A stretch of 64,000 bases of DNA from Patescibacteria group bacterium (GTDB lineage: Bacteria > Patescibacteriota > Patescibacteriia > Patescibacteriales > GWC2-42-12). This document shows positions 6,032 to 50,700 of this stretch, one piece after another. The notes below the pieces were generated by a model. The model ran no database searches. It saw only the letters and a list, made by a program, of their open reading frames with translations, and was not told where the DNA came from. The stretch covers positions 56,791-120,790 of the forward strand of contig JAQVNC010000001.1 of the NCBI GenBank assembly GCA_028703305.1. The letters run 5' to 3'. Every line of letters starts with the position of its first letter. The stretch's first letter is position 1. Both the position numbers and the translations under genes were made by a program.

Positions 6032-6391
6032 ATGACTCATAATCAAAGAATTGGAGAATTTGGTGAAACCTTAGCCAAAAATTATTTAATTAAACATGGC
6101 TATAAAATTATTGACGCTAATGTTAAATTAAGCTATCAAGAGCTTGATATTATAGCTTCGCGAGACGGCCAAATCGTTTTTGTGGAAGTAAAAACCAGAA
6201 TCAGCCAGTTTTATGGGCCGGCGGAAAATGCTTTTCAGTTTACTAAGCTTGAAAGATTTAGGCGGGGCATGGAAATGTATATTGGCAATAAAAATTTATA
6301 TGCCGAGGAGGTCAGGGCAGACTTAATTACTGTGGATATTGATCATATTAAAAAAACAGCCAAGATAAAGCATTATAAAGACGTAGTCTAA
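6032..6391 (+). CDS. yraN: YraN family (UPF0102) endonuclease
   Basis: GExGExLA…GYxIxxxNxRxxxGEIDIIA…VFVEVKTR pattern. Confidence 0.8.
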   Translation: MTHNQRIGEFGETLAKNYLIKHGYKIIDANVKLSYQELDIIASRDGQIVFVEVKTRISQFYGPAENAFQFTKLERFRRGMEMYIGNKNLYAEEVRADLITVDIDHIKKTAKIKHYKDVV

Positions 6392-11171: not shown

Positions 11172-11300
11172 CAAGATAGTTTAGCAAGGTAATGGATTCC
11201 CGCTTTCCCGCCAGAGGCGGACAAGCGCGGGAATGACAAATAGATTCAAGGTAGTTTATTAAGGTAATGGATTGCGGCTCGTAGGCCGCAATGACAAAAT
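11172..11300 (+). repeat. Tandem pair of short hairpin repeats (aaggtaatggattcccgc…gcgggaatgacaa and aaggtaatggattgcggc…gccgcaatgacaa) immediately upstream of the ychF start
   Basis: About 70-bp unit duplicated (tcaagRtagtttaNNaaggtaatggatt…aatgacaaa); both units end in the AATGACAA motif shared with other copies. Confidence 0.65.
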
Positions 11301-11308
11301 AAAAAATT

Positions 11309-12367
11309 ATGTCTTTATCAATCGGAATTGTCGGTTTGCCTAATGTCGGCAAATCAACTTTATTTAACGCTTTAACCAAGAAAAAAGTTGAAGCCTCCAA
11401 TTATCCGTTCTGCACCATTGATCCGAATGTGGGCGTGGTTAAAGTTCCGGACGAAAGGCTGGAAAAATTGGCGACTATTTCCAAGCCTAAAAAAATCATA
11501 CCGGCCTATATTGAATTTGTTGATATCGCCGGCCTGGTTAAGGGCGCGTCCCAAGGCGAAGGGCTGGGCAACCAGTTTTTGTCCCATATTAGAGAGTGCG
11601 ACGCTATTTTAGAAGTGGTGCGCGAATTTAAGGACGATAATATTATTCATGTTAACGGTAAAATTGATCCGGAGGGCGATAAGGAAACCATAAACCTTGA
11701 ATTAATTTTTGCCGACTTGGCCACGGTTGAAAAAAGATTGGATAAAGTCGCACGAGAAGCTAAAAGCGGCAATAAAGAGATGATTGCCTTAAAAGCGCTT
11801 TTGGAAAAATTAAAAATACAGCTTGAGGCCGGCAAGGCTGCGCGCGAGCTTGAGTTAACAGATGATGAAAGAAAAGAAATAAAAAATTTGGGATTGTTAA
11901 CGGTTAAGCCGATAATTTACGTCCTAAACTCCGAGGATAACGCCACTGAAAAATTAGATTGGGGCAGCGAGGTTATTAAAATTAACGCCAAGCTGGAAGA
12001 AGAAATTGCCAGCCTGTCGGAAGATGAGCAGATAGAATATATTAAAGAATTAGGCTTAGACCAAAGCGGTTTGGATAAATTAATTAAAGCTTCATATAAT
12101 GTTTTAGGTCTAATTACTTTTTTAACTACCGGAGCTGACGAAACTCGGGCTTGGACAGTTAAACAAAGCTCTAAAGCGCCGCAAGCGGCCGGCGTCATCC
12201 ATACGGATTTTACCAAAGGCTTTATCCGCGCTGAAATTATTAACTGGCAGAAATTCATTGAAGCCGGATCCGAGGCTAAAGCGCGCGAGCTGGGTTGGAT
12301 TAAAACCGAGGGCAAAGAATATATAATACAAGACGGAGACGTTTGCAATTTTTTAATAAATAATTGA
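11309..12367 (+). CDS. ychF: Ribosome-binding ATPase YchF
   Basis: GIVGLPNVGKSTLFNALT G1 motif, DIAGLVKGASQGEGLGNQFL, and a TGS C-terminal domain. Confidence 0.9.
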   Translation: MSLSIGIVGLPNVGKSTLFNALTKKKVEASNYPFCTIDPNVGVVKVPDERLEKLATISKPKKIIPAYIEFVDIAGLVKGASQGEGLGNQFLSHIRECDAILEVVREFKDDNIIHVNGKIDPEGDKETINLELIFADLATVEKRLDKVAREAKSGNKEMIALKALLEKLKIQLEAGKAARELELTDDERKEIKNLGLLTVKPIIYVLNSEDNATEKLDWGSEVIKINAKLEEEIASLSEDEQIEYIKELGLDQSGLDKLIKASYNVLGLITFLTTGADETRAWTVKQSSKAPQAAGVIHTDFTKGFIRAEIINWQKFIEAGSEAKARELGWIKTEGKEYIIQDGDVCNFLINN

Positions 12368-12390
12368 CAAAGTTTATAAAATTGCTATAT
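12363..12390 (+). promoter_or_regulatory. Near-consensus sigma70 promoter (TTGACA-16-TATATT) overlapping the ychF stop codon
   Basis: tTGAca contains the ychF TGA stop; spacer aagtttataaaattgc; -10 tatatt. Confidence 0.6.
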
Positions 12391-12396
12391 TAAAGG

Positions 12397-12645
12397 GCTA
12401 CATCACAGTTGCTCTTTTTTAATACGCGGGATTCATTGGCCTGCCGGGGCTAATGATGAAATTTTTGCTTAAGCCTTTAAAACCAGTCCGCTGGCCGAGG
12501 CCACCTCCTCCTACCGCAACGGACGGGGTTTTCGCAAAAGTTTGATTTCCCGCTTTAGGGGTTGGTCTGCTGTGCGGCGGAGTTGCCAACGACTGCTCCG
12601 CTTGACTAATGCATGCCACGGACCGCCCCTTTTTCTCTTTTTAAA
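12397..12645 (+). ncRNA. Candidate GC-rich structured ncRNA of unknown class, about 250 nt, bounded by a promoter and a terminator
   Basis: About 55% GC in a roughly 35% GC genome with no credible ORF in any frame; long-range stem aggggttggtc/gaccgcccct followed by ttttctcttttt; an internal gcggag…ctccgc hairpin. Confidence 0.4.
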
Positions 12646-12883
12646 AAGCATCAATTAAGATGCTTCTTTTTTTATAAAATTTGCCCAGATTATTTAATCT
12701 AAAATTTCATATTCCCAGCCCGGTTGCCAACCGGTCGCCAGGTCATTCTCATTATCAATCGTCGTGCCATGCACGAAGTAGGTTATTTTTACGGGCATAA
12801 TTAAGAGTAGATATTTTATTTAGTACAAAGTGTAAAAGAATTAGGGTATAAATGCTCCGGAGACAAGGCTTATTATTACATGA

Positions 12884-14137
12884 CTATGCGGCAAAAGCAA
12901 ACAATTGTTGCTGAATGCACACAGGCGTTTCCTCTTTTTCTTCTTCAATTTCACCGTTAAGCATTTTAATTATCATGTCGCCGATGTGATATCCGAGGTT
13001 TGCAGGTACAGCATTTCCTATTTGTTTATATTGTTGCGAAACGGATCCTGAAAATTTCCAACTATCTGGAAATGTTTGAATTCGCGCGTATTCGCGCACA
13101 GACAAAGGGCGCGTTTCATCTGGATGGCAACGTTCAGTTTGTTTTTGAGCCGGACTGCAAGTTAAGGTTAAAGATGGTTCGTCCCATGACAATCGTCTCG
13201 CCATGCCAGTTTTGCCGCCACCCATAAAATAACTTGCTCCCATGTATTCTTTTTGAAGATTTTCCGGAAGATCTCTCCAGTACCCGCCAGGAGGAATTAG
13301 TTCTAATATTTTTTTCTTTTTTTCGGGATATTCTTGGCCTTCAGATTTTGGGCATCTGTTGAATGCTTCACGCAGGGGAACGATATAATCTTTTTCCCTT
13401 GGAAATGAAATTGGAATATTTAAATCTTTTCTAACGCCAATAATTATAAGACGTTCTCTTTTTTGCGGAACATCCAAATATTGTGATCGTAGAATTTTAT
13501 ATTTAACTCGGTATCCAATTTCTTCTAAAACAGACACCATCGTTTTAATCGTTCTGCCATCGTTATGGTTTAGTAATCCTTTGACATTTTCTCCAATTGC
13601 AATTTTAGGCCTAACTTCCTTAACACATCTCGCGAACTCAAAAAATAATGTACCCCGTATATCTTCAAACCCCATTTTTCGACCAGCTTGCGAAAAAGTC
13701 TGGCAAGGGAAACCTCCTTGAACAATATCAGCCTGCCCTTTAAAAAATTTAAGCTCTCTTATATCTTTTTCCACAACATTCCAATTTGGCTTGTTGATTC
13801 GAAGTGTTTCACAGGCGTGTTTGTCATACTCGTTTAATAACACATGTTCAATTCCCGCGTTTTCCATCCCTAAAGCAGTGCCCCCTGCGCCAGCAAATAA
13901 CTCGATTGCTGTGTAGTTGGACATTCGATTATTCTTTAAAATTTTAAATTTGCTTTTTTTATCCCCATGAGTTTTATTTTGTATTCTCTTTATTTCTTCT
14001 AAACTAAATATACGATCGTTTTTTCCATCTCTAAAAGATTTAATTAATCCTTTTTTATCCCACCTCCTGATAGTATCAATTGAAATACCTAATTGACGAG
14101 CCGCCTCTCCAGCGGTTATGAATTGATTTTTTTTCAT
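12884..14137 (-). CDS. DNA (cytosine-5) methyltransferase with an N-terminal MerR/excisionase-type HTH domain
   Basis: N-terminal FITAGEAARQLGISIDTIRRWDKKGLI (HTH); ELFAGAGG (motif I); GFPCQTFSQAGRKMG (PC motif IV); ENV; and a C-terminal QIGNAVP. Confidence 0.85.
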   Translation of the reverse strand: MKKNQFITAGEAARQLGISIDTIRRWDKKGLIKSFRDGKNDRIFSLEEIKRIQNKTHGDKKSKFKILKNNRMSNYTAIELFAGAGGTALGMENAGIEHVLLNEYDKHACETLRINKPNWNVVEKDIRELKFFKGQADIVQGGFPCQTFSQAGRKMGFEDIRGTLFFEFARCVKEVRPKIAIGENVKGLLNHNDGRTIKTMVSVLEEIGYRVKYKILRSQYLDVPQKRERLIIIGVRKDLNIPISFPREKDYIVPLREAFNRCPKSEGQEYPEKKKKILELIPPGGYWRDLPENLQKEYMGASYFMGGGKTGMARRLSWDEPSLTLTCSPAQKQTERCHPDETRPLSVREYARIQTFPDSWKFSGSVSQQYKQIGNAVPANLGYHIGDMIIKMLNGEIEEEKEETPVCIQQQLFAFAA

Positions 14138-14198
14138 AAAAAATGATAGATTAATAATCTATCATAATTATATCAAATAACCTTTGCCTAGGCAATGG

Positions 14199-14906
14199 TT
14201 ATTTAGTGAGAAAAGCTAATTTAAATAATTCAAAATATTTCTTAGCTTCTTCTTTGCTTAATTTAAACTTGTATTTGTCTACTAAAATATGAGATAGTGC
14301 TTCAAATAGTTCCTGCAGGGCATATTTTCGTCCGGTTGCAAGAGCATAAAAGCTTATGCCATCAATTATTCTGATATTTTTTGCGCTCGGTCTTCTTTTT
14401 TGAGTCTTATTGTCTGATGGGGTAAAAGGTTTGTCGTATATGTTTTTTGCTTGAGGTATTATTTCTACATAATATCCAGTAAAGCGATGAAATTTTTCTG
14501 ATTTAAGTTTTGATTTTATAGCATCATATATTTCAACCTTATGATTTCCTTTTGTTGTATTGAATTTATTTTTTACTTCCGCGATAATTTTCATTTTATC
14601 ATTTGCAACATCCAAACCTCCACCAACGCCGAGATTTTTCCAGCCAGGGATTGCACCCAATACTTCTTGATGAAAATCACCAATGGCATTTTGCATTGTT
14701 TTTTGTGATTGTCTGGCCTTTTCTTGTTTTATCCATTCTTTATATGTTATCGCATGGGTGACCCCATGAAACAAGGCTGAAAAAGGATCAATAACATTTT
14801 TATGGAGATTACTACTGGCCTCACGTTCGGTCGTTTTGATTATTCTGACCACTTTTCCAACGGCAGAAATTAGGTTTTTGTCGGATATAAATTTTAGATA
14901 TGGCAT
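14199..14906 (-). CDS. Putative type II restriction endonuclease partnering the C5-MTase (tentatively Eco47II-like)
   Basis: Adjacent and co-directional with the C5-MTase, 235 aa, no housekeeping similarity; the family assignment is from memory only. Confidence 0.45.
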   Translation of the reverse strand: MPYLKFISDKNLISAVGKVVRIIKTTEREASSNLHKNVIDPFSALFHGVTHAITYKEWIKQEKARQSQKTMQNAIGDFHQEVLGAIPGWKNLGVGGGLDVANDKMKIIAEVKNKFNTTKGNHKVEIYDAIKSKLKSEKFHRFTGYYVEIIPQAKNIYDKPFTPSDNKTQKRRPSAKNIRIIDGISFYALATGRKYALQELFEALSHILVDKYKFKLSKEEAKKYFELFKLAFLTK

Positions 14907-14927
14907 AAATATTTTTAATAATTAATT

Positions 14928-15110
14928 AAATCGTTTTCGCGGCGGAGCGGTTTTGCTCAACGTCGGCGCATATAAGAAGAAATGCGAAACGAGTTGAGGT
15001 GGTACAATTTGTGCGGAGCACTACCACCGAAAACGAGTGTAGCATTTTTTGCGTGAACGAGCCATGCGAGTGAGCCTTATATGCGCTGTTATATGCTGTG
15101 CCAGCCTTAT
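14928..15110. repeat. GC-rich repeat A: the 3' half of the 66-bp core plus a variable hairpin module (gcgcatataag…cttatatgcgc)
   Basis: cgcggcggagcggttttgctcaacg matches the right half of the cores at 15731 and 18911; long-range cgttttcg/cgaaaacg pairing. Confidence 0.6.
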
Positions 15111-15111
15111 A

Positions 15112-15570
15112 CTAAAGCTGTTTTTTCATTAGTGTCATTGAACCTACATCACCAACAATTTCCTTTATTTTTTTATATCCTAACTTCTTATAAAAATTTA
15201 CTGCAAAGGGGCTTGCTTTAAGGGAGACGGAGCGAAAACCCCATTTTTTTGCGTCACTTTCTAAACGATTCATGAGCTCTCTACCAATGCCCTTACCATG
15301 ATAATTCGGATTAACAAACACAGCACGACCCCAATTATCGTTCAGTGTTAAATCTAAAGTAGCAGTACCAACAACTTTTCCATTTAATTCAGCAACATAG
15401 ATATTGAATCGTTTAGAATCCTTAATAAACTGACCAGGTGTAAAATGCTTGTAGAGGATCACAGTTTGCTTTTTAGTTATATCTTTACTGTTAATTAAAA
15501 CGATACATTTTCTGCTTAAATAAGAAAGTTTTCGCTCGTCTCCCTTTTTAAATTTTCGAATTTTAATCAT
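15112..15570 (-). CDS. GNAT-family N-acetyltransferase
   Basis: Acetyl-CoA motif VGTATL…RAVFVNPNYHGKGIGRELM; start taken at MIKIRKF (15570), because the ORF-track N-extension runs into the GC repeat. Confidence 0.75.
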   Translation of the reverse strand: MIKIRKFKKGDERKLSYLSRKCIVLINSKDITKKQTVILYKHFTPGQFIKDSKRFNIYVAELNGKVVGTATLDLTLNDNWGRAVFVNPNYHGKGIGRELMNRLESDAKKWGFRSVSLKASPFAVNFYKKLGYKKIKEIVGDVGSMTLMKKQL

Positions 15571-15574
15571 AAGT

Positions 15575-15900
15575 TTAAGGCTGACATGGCATATAACGCG
15601 CGCGGGATATGCGATGCGCCTGGAGGCCAGTACTCTGGCCGCAAGGCGTTTCGCATATCCCGAGTTGGGCGATGCCGCTCCGCCTTGCCCGTAGGGCGGG
15701 CGAGCGGCGAGTCCAACGAGGGCCTGCCCGCGCGCGTTGAGCAAAACCGCGAGCACCGAGCGTTAGCGAGGGCGGAGCGGTTTTGCTCAACGTATCGGCA
15801 TATCTGATGTTTGCCGTAGCGTAGCGGAGGCAAATATGGGTGGAGGCTTTTGTATAAAAGCCGTAACCAGATATGCCGTGTTATGTGATGTGCATGTTTT
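15575..15900. repeat. GC-rich repeat B: hairpin cgggatatgcga…tcgcatatcccg, then the 66-bp core (15731..15796), then a variable hairpin module (ggcatatctg…cagatatgcc)
   Basis: The core cgcgcGTTGAGCaaaaccgc…gcggttttGCTCAACgtatc is identical to 18911..18976. Confidence 0.7.
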
Positions 15901-16016
15901 ACTTTAATCCCGATAGCAATCGGGATTGCTCTAAAAAAGAATTTTAATTTTGTTTTTTTTGTTTTGAAAAAATGAAAGAGGGGTTAGGGGTGAATTCCAT
16001 TTTTCAAAACTCCTTA

Positions 16017-16754
16017 TTATTTACTACGTTGTTTTTTATAAGCCTCAATAATTTTATTTGCCAATTCATTAGATTTAGATTCGTATTTTACAAATTCATC
16101 AATATTATCTTGTTTAACATGTAGCTGCCCTTCTCCGGTGTTGCCTCTGTGCTGTCCTTTTGAATAGTATTTATTTTGCTCAACTTCTTTTGAAGCAAGT
16201 ACCCAATATTTAATCGTGTCTCGCCAAACTCCAACCCAAACAAAAACATCGCAACATTTAGGCTTTACTTGTTGAAAATTCATATCAAATGGTAGTCCTG
16301 ATTCCCATGCTAACGCTTTAACATAAAGTGCTTCTTGACTGTTAAAATCGACAGCTCTTGAGGCTTTAACTTCTATTTTAATCATTTCTCCATTCGTTAG
16401 CGGATATAAAAAGTCGTATTCTCCAGAATAATTTTCTTCAAGTTTCTTTGTTGGCTTAATAAGTTCAGGAGCAAGCTCTTTTAGGTGTCCCTGTGCCCAT
16501 TGTTCTCCAAACCCACGTGGTGCAGAAATTTCAAATATGTAGAGATACATATTTCTAGCAATATACTCATCTCTAATTTCTAGATAATCGTCTAAAGTGA
16601 TTTTATCTAGACCTAACAAAGTTGAAATTATGTATTCATATTCATTAAATGGATACACCGAAATTAAATTTTCGAGCCTTGTTTTAAGTCCGTCGCCCTC
16701 TTGTTTTGAAAGAGAGTCTATCATCTTTTCGAGTTTTTTCTTTAGAATTTCCAT
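16017..16754 (-). CDS. Hypothetical protein with a PD-(D/E)xK-like motif; putative restriction endonuclease of the second R-M module
   Basis: …EYDFLYPLTNGEMIKIEVKASRA… (D…ExK arrangement); 4 bp downstream of and co-directional with the N6A-MTase. Confidence 0.4.
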   Translation of the reverse strand: MEILKKKLEKMIDSLSKQEGDGLKTRLENLISVYPFNEYEYIISTLLGLDKITLDDYLEIRDEYIARNMYLYIFEISAPRGFGEQWAQGHLKELAPELIKPTKKLEENYSGEYDFLYPLTNGEMIKIEVKASRAVDFNSQEALYVKALAWESGLPFDMNFQQVKPKCCDVFVWVGVWRDTIKYWVLASKEVEQNKYYSKGQHRGNTGEGQLHVKQDNIDEFVKYESKSNELANKIIEAYKKQRSK

Positions 16755-16758
16755 AGGA

Positions 16759-18723
16759 TTATTTAATGTTAAAATTTTTAATATGTTTTTTTTCTTTTTC
16801 TGTAAGACTAAATTGATCCATTATATAATTATCCAATTCTTCATATTTGTCTTTTTTGGCTATTATATCATCTACTAATTTCATAATTATTTCAAAAATT
16901 TCTTTATTCCATAAAGGTAAAGGCATTTGTTCAATATGATTTCTCAAAACTTTTATACTCGAAAACTTTTTTTGAAAAATAAACTGATAAGGAGATGAGT
17001 TTAATAAAGCAACGATAACCTTAATTGGATAGTTTGGGATTTTGGGAATTACAATATTTGCACTATTTAAAGTTAATTTTTGCTTGTCATCATATGCAAA
17101 TATCAAATACTTTGAAATGAAGCGATAAATTAATTTTTCTTTAGCTCTATATTTTTCGATAGGAGCAACTTGTTGAAATTTTTCGGGAGTAAATTGTATG
17201 TAATTTGACGGATTACTTAAAATAAATTTATCAACTTCTTTTCCTTTATATATTTCTTCAAGTCCTTCTTTTTTTTCGCTCGTTATATATGCTTTGTTAT
17301 TGCCAGTAACAATACCAAGTGCCCAATCTGCTTGATTTGATAATGTTGTGTGCTGAATATCAAAAATTTTATCAATTATGCTTGTATCAAAGCCATTTGC
17401 ATGTATGTCAAAAACAAAGTCAATATTATTTTTCCACTTAGATTGTTCAATGAAATATTTTTCATTTTCTTTAAAAATTTCAATCTGTGTGTTTTCTATT
17501 CTGTTTTTTTCTAAATCAAGTCTGATAACTGGAGTAAATACATTTTTAAACACACGATTCAAACAAGAGACTTTTTTTATATGAGTATTTTTCAAAATAA
17601 TTTCTCGTATATCTTTGTGTGTTTTTACATTCAAAATTGATTCAGGCAAGATAAATGAAATAAATCCTCCGTCTTTTAGCAAATCAATACTCTTTTTTAA
17701 GAAATAAGAGAAAGATTCTAAAGATGTTATTTCAGGATAGGTTGTTTTTAATTTTTCTGTATCTAATTTTGAAAAATGAACACCCCAAGGTGGATTTGTC
17801 GCAATTACATCAAAATCTCTAATATTCTCGTCATTCAAACTAAATAAATCATAACTTCCAATTTCAAAAAGTGTATTTTTACAAACAATATTTGGTGCGA
17901 AGTTTTGATCTTTATATTTCATCAAGATATTTAATCTTGCGATTCTCACAGCTATTTCGTCTATATCAACTCCGTAAATATTTTTTGGATTTTCAACTGT
18001 ATCAGCAAATGCTAATAAAAATTGACCTGTTCCACAACAAGGGTCTAAAACTTTAGAATCTGTTTTTACATAATCCTTAATTATTTCATTAACGATTGTT
18101 TCTGGCGTATAATAAGAGCCTCCTTGTGATTTTTCCCCCTCAAGTAATAGTGATTGATAAAAAAATCCCAAAGTATCACGTTGTCTGGGGATAGAACAAT
18201 TTAACAAAAAGGAATATTCATCTTTAACATTATCAACACCAATATCTGATAACCATGCTTTGATTTCTTCTGAGATTTGTTTGTTGGTGGAAGATAAATT
18301 TTGTGTGATTAAATTTTGAATTGTAATATTTGAAAATATTTTTTCTTTTTGAAGTAAGTTAAGACTTAATAATAATAAAGAAAGTGAAGTATTAATATTA
18401 TTTTTTGAAACAAAGTCTAAAATTTTATTTATGTCATCAATACTAATCCCATCTTTTAAATATTCATCTGGAATAAAAGTCCTCTCTGCTTTAGATTTAT
18501 TTGCCCTTCCATTTAATTTGTCAAAATCACCATTTACTATGTTAGATTTGATATTTTCAATATCGGATAAACTAAAAGAATATCGTCTTTCATTGTTATA
18601 TGTTTTTAGATGACCGCATTTAACCCAATTTCTTACGGTCGCAGTTGAAATACCTAAAAAAGACGACGCTTTTTCAATGTCTATGATATTTTTTGCCTTA
18701 TTTGTAATAGTTAATTCCTGCAT
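16759..18723 (-). CDS. Gamma-class N6-adenine DNA methyltransferase with an N-terminal HTH and a C-terminal target-recognition domain
   Basis: N-terminal ASSFLGISTATVRNWVKCGHL (HTH); VLDPCCGTGQFLL (motif I) precedes DVIATNPPWG (motif IV); start taken at MQELTIT (18723), so the ORF-track N-extension is untranslated leader. Confidence 0.8.
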   Translation of the reverse strand: MQELTITNKAKNIIDIEKASSFLGISTATVRNWVKCGHLKTYNNERRYSFSLSDIENIKSNIVNGDFDKLNGRANKSKAERTFIPDEYLKDGISIDDINKILDFVSKNNINTSLSLLLLSLNLLQKEKIFSNITIQNLITQNLSSTNKQISEEIKAWLSDIGVDNVKDEYSFLLNCSIPRQRDTLGFFYQSLLLEGEKSQGGSYYTPETIVNEIIKDYVKTDSKVLDPCCGTGQFLLAFADTVENPKNIYGVDIDEIAVRIARLNILMKYKDQNFAPNIVCKNTLFEIGSYDLFSLNDENIRDFDVIATNPPWGVHFSKLDTEKLKTTYPEITSLESFSYFLKKSIDLLKDGGFISFILPESILNVKTHKDIREIILKNTHIKKVSCLNRVFKNVFTPVIRLDLEKNRIENTQIEIFKENEKYFIEQSKWKNNIDFVFDIHANGFDTSIIDKIFDIQHTTLSNQADWALGIVTGNNKAYITSEKKEGLEEIYKGKEVDKFILSNPSNYIQFTPEKFQQVAPIEKYRAKEKLIYRFISKYLIFAYDDKQKLTLNSANIVIPKIPNYPIKVIVALLNSSPYQFIFQKKFSSIKVLRNHIEQMPLPLWNKEIFEIIMKLVDDIIAKKDKYEELDNYIMDQFSLTEKEKKHIKNFNIK

Positions 18724-18771
18724 GGTAATTTGTCTTTTATAGTGTAATTGTATCTTGTTTTCAAAAATATT

Positions 18772-18806
18772 AAAATCGTTTTCGGAGCGATAGCGGAGAA
18801 AACACC
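18772..18806. repeat. Degenerate partial copy (D) of the GC-rich repeat in the 5' leader of the N6A-MTase
   Basis: aaaatcgttttcggagcgatagcggagaaaacacc versus repeat A aaatcgttttcgcggcggagcgg. Confidence 0.45.
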
Positions 18807-18879
18807 TTATACCCCCCTCTTTAAAAATTAAAAAAATCAAATTCCTTGTTTCTTAAAGCCCACCAAAAACATTTAAAAA

Positions 18880-19140
18880 AACAAATTTTTCAAAAATATG
18901 TCGCCTAACGCGCGCGTTGAGCAAAACCGCGAGCACCGAGCGTTAGCGAGGGCGGAGCGGTTTTGCTCAACGTATCCGAATATACGAAGTTCTAATTTTT
19001 TTCTGTGTTATAATTGTGCGGACACGCCAACGCAGAAAAAAATTAGAATTTAGGCGGAGATAAAATTCAACTCATTAATGTAATGTAAAAAGGAATTTTA
19101 TCGGAGCCGTATATTCGGTGTTATCGGATGTAAAATTTAT
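18880..19140. repeat. GC-rich repeat C: GCCTAAC-gcgcgc then the 66-bp core (18911..18976) then a variable module (cgaatatacg…cgtatattcg, with a nested ttctaatttttttctg…cagaaaaaaattagaa hairpin)
   Basis: 66-bp perfect identity with 15731..15796; the flanking stems covary around a central ATAT. Confidence 0.7.
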
Positions 19141-19152
19141 TAGCGGGCTTAT

Positions 19153-19482
19153 TTAAACGAAAATTTGAATAATATAATAATAAATGACACTTAAAACAAG
19201 TATTAAACTTGTTGCTTTGATAAATTGATTTTTTATTAATATCGAAAATTTGATTAAAAAGAACGTTAATGCCAAAAATATTATTAGCGGATAAATGCTC
19301 ATTATAACAAAAGCAGTGCCTCCAAAAACGGCTTGAATGCTTTCGTTGAAATCAGAAGGGTAGCCGTTTATTTTTGGAATTATAAATAAGTAACATGCTG
19401 ATAAAAATAATGAGCTTACAAAAAGAAGCGGAATTAATAAAAAATCAAATTTTTGGGGTCTTAAGATTTGTAGTGGTTTCAT
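19153..19482 (-). CDS. Hypothetical small membrane protein (3 TM segments)
   Basis: Hydrophobic profile only. Confidence 0.45.
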   Translation of the reverse strand: MKPLQILRPQKFDFLLIPLLFVSSLFLSACYLFIIPKINGYPSDFNESIQAVFGGTAFVIMSIYPLIIFLALTFFLIKFSILIKNQFIKATSLILVLSVIYYYIIQIFV

Positions 19483-19597
19483 TGTTATATTGTTAAAAAT
19501 TAGAAAGCTAATAAATTTTATTTCCGATAACTAGTTATATATGAACTTAATTATATTTTATTTAATTTTACAATAAAAATCAAATAAGGTTTTGGGT

Positions 19598-19634
19598 TTT
19601 TTTCTGGATTCCCGCCTGTGCGGGAATGACAAGC
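19598..19634 (+). repeat. Short hairpin repeat ttttctggattcccgcctgtgcgggaatgacaa (S2)
   Basis: Same consensus as the copies at 20845, 50640, 11187 and 62333. Confidence 0.65.
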
Positions 19635-20814: not shown

Positions 20815-20844
20815 ATTTTTAGTAAATTGATTTTGCTGATGATT

Positions 20845-20877
20845 TTTTCTGGATTCCCGCTTTCGCGGGAATGACGA
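20845..20877 (+). repeat. Short hairpin repeat ttttctggattcccgctttcgcgggaatgacgaa (S3)
   Basis: Consensus family member; lies in the THUMP-MTase upstream region. Confidence 0.6.
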
Positions 20878-21114
20878 AGGTAATTTAATTAAACCTTAGC
20901 ATAAGAATATGGCTCTTGCAATTTATTTTTGGCTGTGGTAATGTATGAATACAATTTAATTTAACCTTTCCCATATTTAACTGCTAGTGCTGTTAAATAG
21001 CCTGGCGCAAAGCCAGACTAAAGGTATTCTCAAGTAATCCCATGATTGGCAATTCAAGCCGCGAGAATATCTTGGGATTTTTGTTAATAAGGCAAAAATT
21101 AACCAATTAAAATT

Positions 21115-23045: not shown

Positions 23046-23107
23046 ATAAAAAATAAATTTGCATAAATAAAAAACAGAGGCTAAATTGCCTCTGTTTTTT
23101 TTAAATT

Positions 23108-23245
23108 GTCATTGCGAGCGTTAGCGAAGCAATCTCACGAACAATTTAAATAGAATAAATTTTTATTGCAGTGATAATCTATGATTTTAATAAATAGTAT
23201 GTGAGATTGCTTCGTCGCACGAGTACGTACTCCTCGCAATGACAA
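23108..23245. repeat. Nested palindromic repeat L2, between the efp and recA 3' ends
   Basis: gtcattgcgagcgttagcgaagcaatctcac…gtgagattgcttcgtcgcacgagtacgtactcctcgcaatgacaa. Confidence 0.75.
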
Positions 23246-23252
23246 ACCGAGA

Positions 23253-50629: not shown

Positions 50630-50700
50630 GTTATTGCGAAAAATTTCTGGATTCCCGCCTGCGCGGGAATGACAAATTGGAGATTGGTCGCAATGACATT
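50630..50700 (+). repeat. Short hairpin repeat S4 (tttctggattcccgcctgcgcgggaatgacaa) nested inside a minimal gttattgcgaa…gtcgcaatgaca frame; it supplies ATGs upstream of gdh
   Basis: Shares the consensus of the other S copies; the flanks resemble the termini of the L family. Confidence 0.65.

Follow-up and report, generated by a model that had tools for sequence, protein, structure and literature searches.

The window analysed here is a 64-kb stretch of DNA, part of a 164-kb contig of a tiny, uncultured Patescibacteria bacterium. Within it, the interval beside ychF that extends from a THUMP methylase gene to a small-RNA gene is occupied by a succession of minus-strand units, here called cassettes. 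An earlier note on this DNA had named ychF and a THUMP methylase gene as the flanks, and Pfam bears this out (ychF on one side, a THUMP/UPF0020 methylase on the other). The five genes listed in that note are all real, with Pfam domains for both methylases, the GNAT and the Eco47II-family nuclease, and with a PD-(D/E)xK nuclease as the fifth. The three units into which they had been sorted, however, understate the array, which holds at least six cassettes (two without an ORF, one with a membrane-protein ORF and two with defence genes among them), and both the array head (19520-19547) and the cassette of a 109-aa ORF (19153-19482) fall beyond the segment 12397-19140 covered at the time. Along the minus strand, a dif-like head site is followed by the membrane-protein cassette, a 62-nt ORF-less cassette, an N6A restriction-modification cassette, one or two further ORF-less cassettes, a GNAT cassette and an Eco47II-type restriction-modification cassette, and all ORFs of the array are co-oriented. 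The features of the locus are the following.

19520-19547, minus strand: array head, a double-stranded 11-6-11 dif-like site (plus strand ATTTCCGATAA ctagtt ATATATGAACT)
18971-19530, minus strand: cassette 1, with ORF 19153-19482 encoding a 109-aa predicted membrane protein
18965-19126, minus strand: hairpin site C, CGATAAC a CCGAATATACG...CGTATATTCGG atac GTTGAGC
18909-18970, minus strand: ORF-less mini-cassette, a 15-bp hairpin TTGAGCAAAACCGC...GCGGTTTTGCTCAAC, then GCGCGCG
15791-18908, minus strand: cassette 3, type II restriction-modification pair (HTH-N6A methylase and PD-(D/E)xK nuclease)
15785-15886, minus strand: hairpin site B, ACATAAC a CGGCATATCTG...CAGATATGCCG atac GTTGAGC
15597-15790, minus strand: ORF-less cassette or cassettes, with hairpins at 15736-15791 and 15664-15717 and site B'
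15591-15670, minus strand: hairpin site B', GCCCAAC t CGGGATATGCG...CGCATATCCCG cgcgc GTTATAT
14961-15596, minus strand: GNAT cassette, ORF 15112-15570 (GNAT, Pfam)
14955-15094, minus strand: hairpin site A, ATATAAC a GCGCATATAAG...CTTATATGCGC cgac GTTGAGC
12884-14960, minus strand: last cassette, type II restriction-modification pair (Eco47II-family nuclease and HTH-C5 methylase)
12750-12789, minus strand: possible decayed terminal site, AAATAAC ct ACTTCGTGCAT GGCACGACG, weak and read by eye
12364-12672, plus strand: small-RNA gene, outside the array, with its own promoter (TTGACA-16-TGnTATATT) and terminator

Four of the cassettes terminate in a hairpin site, which reads xxxxAAC, 1 nt, a stem of 11-12 bp in which TAT is invariant, a loop that varies, the second strand of the stem, 4-5 nt and GTTxxxx. 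The left part of a site consists of an 11-nt arm ending in AAC and a 6-nt centre, and the putative crossover is marked G|TT. The inner stem is without a bulge, the spacer measures 1 nt on one strand and 3-5 nt on the other with four of its positions paired, and the loop carries a conserved motif, CACCCAAATTGC. Left half-sites follow an exact 11-6-11 spacing, whereas right half-sites have centres of 8-10 nt (11-(8-10)-11), and the 6-nt centres differ from site to site (CACCGA, CACGGC, CAGCGC and CTCGGG). A structure scan of the whole window for the AAC-stem...stem-GTT arrangement, with a minimum stem of 10 bp, returned four sites, all within the 4.2 kb of the array, on the gene strand and with one spacer geometry, where shuffles lead one to expect 0.17 per 64 kb; 1.9 Mb of control DNA gave 18. 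Likewise, all five copies of the 15-mer GTTGAGCAAAACCGC in the window lie within the array locus. Site B' was also considered as an inverted copy flanking the GNAT gene, as in a transposon or an invertible segment, and this was dropped on finding the same spacer asymmetry on one strand in all four sites.

Nine sites from four genomes, 78-162 nt long, have the consensus RYAYAAC and GTTRNRY; the AAC and GTT ends are invariant in 9/9, and the TAT core is kept. In this set, which was partly picked by a pairing-based scan and therefore gives optimistic statistics, seven of the 11 inner-stem pairs have compensatory changes and the paired share of cells is 96%, as against 16-46% in shifted stem registers. 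Among the spacers, those at 15575-15900 and 18880-19140 do share a core as the earlier note had held, of 68 identical bases (83 nt at 94%); the one at 14928-15110, said to have it too, has just 23 bases in common, and the block at 12397-12645 no more than nine with any array spacer. This last block, which had been taken to close the array, belongs to the separate, promoter-driven small-RNA gene, which is conserved in sibling genomes. The four blocks measure 51%, 49%, 59% and 39% GC, not 55-65%, and the window has 39.3%, not about 35%; the cassette genes, at 26-38% against that 39.3%, have a foreign composition. On the minus strand, moreover, every hairpin site goes with the ORF lying upstream, so that the former assignment of spacers to units was wrong.

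The first cassette begins at a G|TT within the head site (minus strand, base 19530). A scan for dif-like sites found 19520-19547 as the sole match in the window, a result that is not significant because shuffles give 2.3 matches. An orthologue of the head site is present at the related locus L136 (16018-16045), and an analogous site (6185-6213) heads the array of another, L256. Judged by sequence, the arms of the sites resemble XerC/D half-sites: ACTTCGTATAT matches the Acinetobacter baumannii XerC arm ACTTCGTATAA at 10/11 positions, and TTATGCGAAAT matches a published Xer arm at 11/11 (PMC7399989, Table 1). The head site was also considered as the chromosomal dif, a reading rejected because GC skew does not switch within the window and the siblings L138 and L141 lack the site.

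The ends of the cassettes carry a further signature. The opening bases of a cassette are complementary to those that precede its own AAC and not to those of the neighbouring site, as expected for a circular intermediate. Own ends match at a mean of 12.5 of 22 positions and other ends at 7.0 (permutation p about 5e-5), values that are optimistic, as complementarity had served to place two of the ten cassette starts. With neighbouring sites in the window, cassette starts match at 0-1/4 only. The start-to-end pairing is long (13-26 nt), and the inverted repeats differ between cassettes while matching within a cassette.

Cassette 1 has terminal inverted repeats that match at 23/25 bases, and its 109-aa ORF has no match in Pfam or NCBIfam. 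In the mini-cassette at 18909-18970, identity to the copy at 15729-15791 ends exactly at a G|TTAGGC junction, and between the B and C copies identity breaks off exactly at a G|TT. Cassette 3 encodes a methylase (16759-18723, minus strand) with HTH_17, N6_Mtase, Eco57I and TaqI_C domains (Pfam) and, as its partner, a 245-aa nuclease (16017-16754, minus strand), in which the proposed PD-(D/E)xK fold was recognised; it has a leader at about 18770-18830 in common with L136, a 3' hairpin at 15906-15927, and a start that matches its own 3' end weakly. Its two genes form a conserved unit, found at 76-92% identity in several phyla and varied contexts and kept together at L261 and L263; in the other genomes examined, no hairpin sites accompany the pair. 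A 250-aa ORF of L138, considered as a homologue of the nuclease, was rejected, since it proved not homologous when tested. The GNAT cassette has a 26-nt inverted repeat (22/26 matching) that abuts both ORF ends. In the last cassette, the other putative nuclease (14199-14906, minus strand) is RE_Eco47II (E 7e-50, Pfam), the gene at 12884-14137 on the same strand combines a MerR-type HTH with a C-5 DNA methylase (E 1e-82, Pfam), and the space between these genes contains a palindrome and a promoter-like site (14167-14204). No clear terminal site was found for this cassette; the candidate at 12750-12789 was detected by none of the scans. With an HTH-fused methylase each, both restriction-modification pairs are type II systems of the standard kind.

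The same family of sites recurs in other Patescibacteria, beside unrelated genes. All sequences compared are metagenome assemblies, in which repeats can mis-order contigs. Siblings whose YchF is 88-90% identical carry other genes in the interval between ychF and the THUMP methylase, which is the comparison that the earlier note had called for. L136 has the head site and the leader in common with the window, together with a hairpin site of its own; in the alignment of the window and L136 at the junction, a random-deletion control did not discriminate. A site of L138 that follows the unrelated 250-aa ORF between recA and efp, an ORF missing from the window and from L141, has 85% identity to site B over 175 nt. 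The GNAT cassettes of the window and of L256 are 74% identical over 502 nt (15587-15087), and this homology starts within 10 nt of the G|TT and stops at the AAC, while the flanking cassettes differ. By this sequence comparison, the GNAT cassette appears to move as a unit between genomes; its hairpin is not conserved between the window and L256, which the integron model does not predict. Searches further afield gave no further members: with GTTGRGCNNNNCCGCTCCGCC, a poor pattern, genome contigs yielded at least 135 loci, of which the 25 lowest in GC were all chance matches; a metagenome scan with a gapped pattern, also poor, gave three chance matches and no further copies; scans of viral sequences gave chance matches or none; and BLAST against phages and plasmids gave no match.

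With this anatomy, covariation and circular-permutation signature, and with sites of one family spread over further genes, loci and genomes, the stretch from the THUMP methylase gene to the small-RNA gene is probably a mobile gene-cassette array built on the minus strand by site-specific recombination. The array is also likely to be integron-like (CALIN-like), with non-canonical, dif-like hairpin sites. In this the core of the earlier note stands, that is, a same-orientation cassette array of the integron/CALIN type with no integrase in the window; its label of a 'defence-cassette array' holds as to the array and is too narrow as to defence, because just two cassettes carry defence genes.

No HxLRH tyrosine-recombinase box occurs in the six frames of the window, none of the window proteins inspected resembles a recombinase, and no recombinase Pfam domain is annotated at the related loci. 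The sites could be served by a Xer/IntI-clade tyrosine recombinase whose gene lies elsewhere in the genome. Such an enzyme would bind a hairpin site in its folded, single-stranded form and carry out a one-strand exchange at G|TT, the partner being the head site or a second hairpin site; the resulting junction would be resolved by replication, as happens when integron cassettes are inserted or CTX phage integrates. A more tentative proposal, possible though on balance doubtful, is that the array is a counterpart of the integron without an integrase, in which folded hairpins mimic dif and the cassettes are inserted at a dif-like head site by the host's own Xer.

It is unlikely that the array is instead a double-stranded dif-module system, with host Xer acting on ordinary 11-6-11 sites and the hairpin a mere by-product of inverted arms. 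Gene modules with inward-facing 'R' arms would then alternate with short palindromic modules with 'L' arms, as in Acinetobacter pdif, and C and D modules do alternate in pdif plasmids (PMC13141974). The exact 11-6-11 spacing of the head site and of the left half of every hairpin site would follow, as would the likeness of the arms to XerC/D half-sites (PMC7399989), and the end of the GNAT homology at the AAC, with the hairpin excluded, fits the exchange of a single module. Nevertheless, the centres of the right half-sites measure 8-10 nt and not 6, central regions differ within one array although a complete double-stranded Xer exchange needs identical spacers, and stem pairs within the central region covary. 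The inverted repeats, moreover, reach 23-26 nt, far past the 11-nt arms, and the genes all have one orientation, whereas dif modules invert freely.

Three further explanations are less likely still. That the hairpin units are selfish repeats of the MITE/REP type, lodged in the intergenic spaces of a horizontally acquired island and without a part in gene movement, is distinctly improbable: the units are indeed GC-rich, palindromic and intergenic, two copies are 94% identical, and the genome has other REP-like and MITE-like repeats, but no copies occur elsewhere in the 64 kb, target-site duplications are absent, all copies share one polarity, each against an ORF end, the inverted repeats are cassette-specific and not family-wide, and, from one genome to another, the GNAT gene keeps its cassette boundaries. 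A role in RNA, as 3'-UTR stabilisers, terminators or processing sites, with the repeats as shared regulatory modules, is very improbable. The hairpins sit on the coding strand, 3' to ORFs, with strong folding (z scores -7.6 and -11.3), and attC sites are likewise transcribed; yet no U-tracts are found at the array hairpins, neither the hairpins nor the small RNA match Rfam, which lacks an attC family, at gathering and E-value thresholds, and such a role leaves unexplained the invariant AAC/GTT ends, the complementarity of cassette starts and ends, the ORF-less units and the insertion polymorphisms between genomes. Scarcely credible, finally, is a chimeric assembly or binning artefact in which repeats joined unrelated metagenome fragments. 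The window does come from a metagenome-assembled genome, and exact repeats of 68 nt could mis-join short-read contigs, but the methylase-nuclease junction recurs in Logan SRR22315506, an independent run, four sibling assemblies have syntenic flanks, and the site family is found in independent assemblies from other studies.

The integron-like reading of the array invites comparison with several known systems. A canonical attC site is about 57-141 nt long and is bounded by two outer boxes, R'' (RYYYAAC) and R' (GTTRRRY), whose AAC and GTT are invariant and stand at the crossover; its L box carries extrahelical bases, and a central spacer of some 5 nt stays unpaired on both strands. An integron cassette usually carries one promoterless, co-oriented ORF. 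As in integrons and CALINs, the cassettes of the array stand in tandem and point the same way, and each closes with an imperfect palindrome that has ...AAC and GTT... as its borders and keeps its structure while its sequence varies; some cassettes lack an ORF, the starts are complementary to the cassette's own inverse core, and a double-stranded site stands at the head. The invariant AAC and GTT agree with the outer boxes of attC, and one site of the array exceeds the canonical length. The sites are nevertheless not canonical attC, since the stem has no extrahelical bases and takes its asymmetry from a 1-nt versus 4-5-nt internal loop, the arms are dif-like and of 11 nt as opposed to 7-nt boxes, and long start-end pairing, the inner-stem TAT and the loop motif are added. 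Multi-kb two-gene operons with their own promoters are unusual among integron cassettes, and it counts against the integron-like reading that two cassettes here are restriction-modification operons of 2-3 kb with their own promoter-like and operator-like sites. Type II restriction-modification systems are a further comparison as mobile units; the N6A pair lies here inside the cassette array, and in the other genomes examined it is without hairpin sites. A complete integron has intI, a tyrosine-recombinase gene with the I2 insertion, next to attI and Pc; the array has no intI in the window, and a CALIN is defined as a cluster of attC sites with no integrase in cis (PMC9024848, PMC4792948). No report of integrons in Patescibacteria was found in the searchable literature.

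The array further differs from Acinetobacter pdif modules in being chromosomal, in a CPR bacterium, with co-oriented genes, and in having junctions that are hairpin composites with unequal centres (6 versus 8-10 nt) and non-identical spacers. Recombining pdif sites share identical or near-identical 6-bp spacers. Each pdif module is bounded by 28-bp XerC/D sites of the 11-6-11 form in alternating orientation, a spacing that the array shows at its head site and in its left half-sites. Like the array, pdif plasmids carry modules of accessory genes, those for defence and toxins among them, with XerC/D-like sites, two alternating module types and no dedicated recombinase (PMC6449649, PMC13141974, PMC7399989).

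If the more tentative proposal made above is true, the array would represent, within the reduced Patescibacteria genomes, a living intermediate that stands between Xer/dif, IMEX of the CTX type (integrative mobile elements exploiting Xer) and integrons. Current thinking derives integron integrases from Xer-like recombinases, and an attC architecture with dif-type arms and no dedicated integrase in cis would be the kind of intermediate predicted by a Xer origin of integrons. Patescibacteria genomes are of about 1 Mb, with few classical mobile elements, and such arrays would also explain how these bacteria exchange defence and accessory genes at fixed hotspots. Standard attC models are expected to miss these sites, so that a dedicated site model could reveal a hidden cassette pool in candidate-phyla genomes. 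The only known reaction akin to cassette insertion is the integration of CTX phage by host XerCD (PMC4792948). The array, like IMEX elements of the CTX type, is without a recombinase of its own, and its folded single-stranded hairpin would mimic dif with Xer-type arms; CTX-type integration involves the exchange of a single strand, after which the junction is resolved by replication (PMC3442271, PMC4792948). Unlike these elements, the array does not lie at the chromosomal dif or terminus, and its units are single accessory genes and not phages, with one hairpin site for each cassette.

Read on the minus strand, which is that of the genes, the spacers of the array hold four sites of one architecture (A, B, B' and C), described here, as is everything that follows, from metagenome assemblies and comparative sequence analysis. 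Each site begins with a 7-mer with a terminal AAC, followed by 1 nt and a perfect stem of 11-12 bp with ATAT at mid-stem; the two strands of the stem enclose a loop that varies from 40 to 120 nt, and after 4-5 nt more the site closes with a 7-mer opening with GTT. A scan of the whole window on both strands for the pattern AAC-(0-3 nt)-stem...stem-(3-7 nt)-GTT returned these four sites and two unrelated hairpins on the opposite strand; for stems of 10 bp or more, block-shuffled windows gave 0.17 matches. Control DNA totalling 1.9 Mb gave 18. Site B' (15591-15670) was considered as an inverted copy and rejected, since its spacer asymmetry equals that of the others on the same strand, so that all four sites share the polarity of the genes. 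The hairpin family recurs in two loci of sibling genomes (L136 and L138) and in a locus of another Patescibacteria contig (L256). In an alignment of nine sites, drawn from four genomes, AAC, GTT and a TAT core are invariant, both partners have changed in seven of the 11 stem pairs, and the share of paired cells is 96% at the true register vs 16-46% at shifted registers; since a scan for pairing supplied part of the site set, the paired fraction is inflated, while the compensatory pattern is unaffected. The loops of window site B and of sites of L138, L136 and L256 (L256_0 and L256_1) have a conserved motif in common, (C)CACCCAAATT(T)GC, after which come CGCAAC and the inner arm. Found in distant genomes at 29% and 39% GC, it may be the binding site of an accessory protein.

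The arms of these sites are dif-like. On the left of every site, 11-nt arms ACATCNCATAA and (A/G)TATNNGGTT... are separated by 6 nt, and on the right, 11-nt arms ACTTCNNATAT and TT... by 8-10 nt. The inner arm of site C, ACTTCGTATAT, matches the XerC arm of A. baumannii, ACTTCGTATAA, at 10 of 11 positions, and the start of one L256 cassette, TTATGCGAAAT, is a published Xer arm (both PMC7399989, Table 1). Folding would turn a site into a dif-like duplex in which the centre is 6 bp and one strand bulges by 3 nt. Counted from its head, the array is ordered as follows.

Elements of the array, in order.
Element 1, 19520-19547, minus strand: head site
Element 2, minus strand: cassette of a predicted 109-aa membrane protein, with site C at its end
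Element 3, minus strand: 62-nt ORF-less cassette (mini-cassette)
Element 4, minus strand: N6A restriction-modification cassette, with site B at its end
Element 5, minus strand: ORF-less cassette(s), with site B' at the end
Element 6, minus strand: GNAT cassette, with site A at its end
Element 7, minus strand: Eco47II/C5 restriction-modification cassette, its terminal site at best decayed (12750-12789)

A plain double-stranded 11-6(7)-11 site opens each array (window 19520-19547; L136 16018-16045; L256 6185-6213). In DNA this AT-rich, dif-like sites are no more numerous than chance would give, and the case for the head sites lies in their place at the array heads, not in their count. The head site is not a chromosomal dif: the GC skew does not switch anywhere in the window, and neither L138 nor L141, a third sibling locus, has the site. 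Just upstream of it, and pointing into the array, is a promoter-like TTGATT-17-TAAAAT (19555-19583, minus strand) on a flank conserved in L138; by analogy, it could be the counterpart of the integron Pc promoter.

If cassettes moved in circular form, with the cut at G|TT (the proposed crossover point, at the cassette start), the first bases of a cassette would pair with those before its own AAC, and not with the upstream site.

Matches between the start of a cassette and its own 3' end.
GNAT cassette: 22/26
109-aa ORF cassette: 23/25
Mini-cassette: 15/15
L136 64-aa ORF cassette: 12/13
L256 111-aa ORF cassette: 21/23

Over ten cassettes, two with starts placed by seeking complementarity and the rest with starts set by the preceding site, own ends score higher than non-own ends (permutation p ~5e-5); neighbouring sites in the window give 0-1 of 4 matches past GTT. 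The GNAT homology between window and L256 (74% over 502 nt) runs from at most 10 nt off G|TT to AAC, the 68 nt identical in the B and C regions stop precisely at a G|TTAGGC junction, and, with the first two cassettes left out, the window aligns to L136 across ...ATATAACTAG|TT... at 77%, an alignment with a weak control. All three fit the circular-cassette model.

The five-gene annotation of the earlier note was upheld by gene calls and domain matches, with one protein lacking a family match.

Genes of the array.
12884-14137: MerR-HTH and C5 methylase
14199-14906: Eco47II-family nuclease
15112-15570: GNAT
16017-16754: 245-aa protein with no family match
16759-18723: HTH_17 and N6A methylase with TaqI_C domain

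No Pfam or NCBIfam model matches the 16017-16754 protein, which has more than 4,700 homologues. The best 120 of these (P0145-P0264) show 76-92% identity and represent six or more phyla or candidate divisions, those named being Patescibacteria lineages, Omnitrophota and Elusimicrobia; for a restriction enzyme, such conservation is unusually high. Two other genomes, one of Patescibacteria and one of Elusimicrobia (four near-identical contigs), encode a homologue of this protein 4 nt behind a methylase of 655-658 aa that has the core domains of the window's enzyme. On these grounds the protein is the nuclease of a type II pair that has travelled widely. A palindrome with perfect ends (AAATAACCTTTGCCTAGGCAATGGTTATTT, 14167-14204), situated between the genes of the Eco47II-type nuclease and its HTH-methylase, overlaps a promoter-like site and is probably the operator of the methylase's HTH domain. 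The methylation motif to be expected of the Eco47II-type pair is GGNCC. A leader, ...GGTGTTTTCTCCGCT..CGCTCCGAAAACGATTT..., is common to window 18770-18830, window 14913-14944 and L136 15890-15950, in each case before the first ORF of a different cassette, and either belongs to the platform or acts as a portable promoter or operator, both being possibilities only.

Comparison with siblings, proposed in the earlier note, revealed that gene content between ychF and the THUMP methylase gene differs among genomes with 88-90% identical YchF: L136 carries KilA-N and unknown ORFs, L138 a cation ATPase, and L141 NUDIX-DHH, His_Phos and DUF333 genes. The interval from ychF and a small RNA to the THUMP methylase is hypervariable. 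Within it, downstream of the KilA-N gene, L136 has a site that shares the geometry and the GCATAT core. The L138 site is 85% identical to window site B over 175 nt, including the 3' hairpin upstream of the site, and comes after an unrelated 250-aa ORF without family match, inserted after the recA stop codon and ahead of the shared recA/efp terminator, and absent from the window and L141; together (17638-18555) they look like a solo cassette insertion outside any array. L256, on the 29%-GC contig PWIL01000127.1, has five consecutive co-oriented genes, namely a 111-aa ORF, an aminotransferase, two GNATs and a racemase, with a GNAT 74% identical to that of the window. Each of the first four is followed by a site of the hairpin family, the fourth atypical; no site follows the racemase, which therefore may not be a cassette.

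The window, part of a metagenome-assembled Patescibacteria (CPR) genome, has a GC content of 39.3%, and its closest relatives are labelled Falkowbacteria. The earlier description of the spacers as GC-rich repeats with one identical core stands in part: two share 68 identical bases, but the third shares only 23 and the block at 12397-12645 none, and the GC values were overstated, the four blocks measuring 51%, 49%, 59% and 39%. The block at 12397-12645, formerly counted as an array repeat, belongs to a conserved, promoter-driven gene.

12364-12672, plus strand: small-RNA gene of about 275 nt with near-consensus promoter and intrinsic terminator

The best promoter match of the region (TTGACA-16-TGnTATATT, 12364-12391) lies ahead of the block and an intrinsic terminator (12646-12665) behind it; folding against shuffles gives z -4.0 for the plus strand and z -0.3 for the minus strand, and no Rfam family matches. 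Gene and promoter are kept downstream of ychF in L141 and L136, not in L138. The block is a resident small-RNA gene of no assigned family, and bounds the variable interval on its far side rather than being an array repeat. Other repeats in the window include REP-like hairpins (GGATTCCCGC nnnn GCGGGAATGAC; 11180-11300, 19598-19633, 20843-20878 and 50649-50673), which flank several genes, the THUMP methylase gene on both sides, and a MITE-like insert of ~150 nt in the recA-efp gap (about 23100-23250), with inverted ends GTCATTGCGAG...CTCGCAATGAC and absent from L141. A 13-mer, TCGCTAACGCTCG, is common to this insert and the loop of the array's 15-bp hairpin.

As noted earlier for integrases, no recombinase was found in the window, and none is annotated in L136, L138, L141 or L256. 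The enzyme at work may be a distant IntI-like one or the host's Xer. A route of the integron/CTX type is favoured (PMC4792948, PMC3442271), in which a folded single strand would be the substrate, one strand would be exchanged at G|TT and replicative resolution would follow; in support of it, central regions differ between sites within one array, stem pairs inside these regions covary, and the centres on the right measure 8-10 nt. A dif-module route, with double-stranded sites and alternating modules (PMC13141974), is possible and would account for the hairpin of the GNAT cassette not being conserved between genomes. The searchable literature, to which any claim of novelty is limited, yielded no report of an integron or an attC array from Patescibacteria or CPR. 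The array behaves like the cassette array of an integron and, in formal terms, fits the definition of a CALIN (PMC9024848); its sites differ from canonical attC in having neither extrahelical bases nor a two-sided unpaired spacer, and they bear Xer-type arms.
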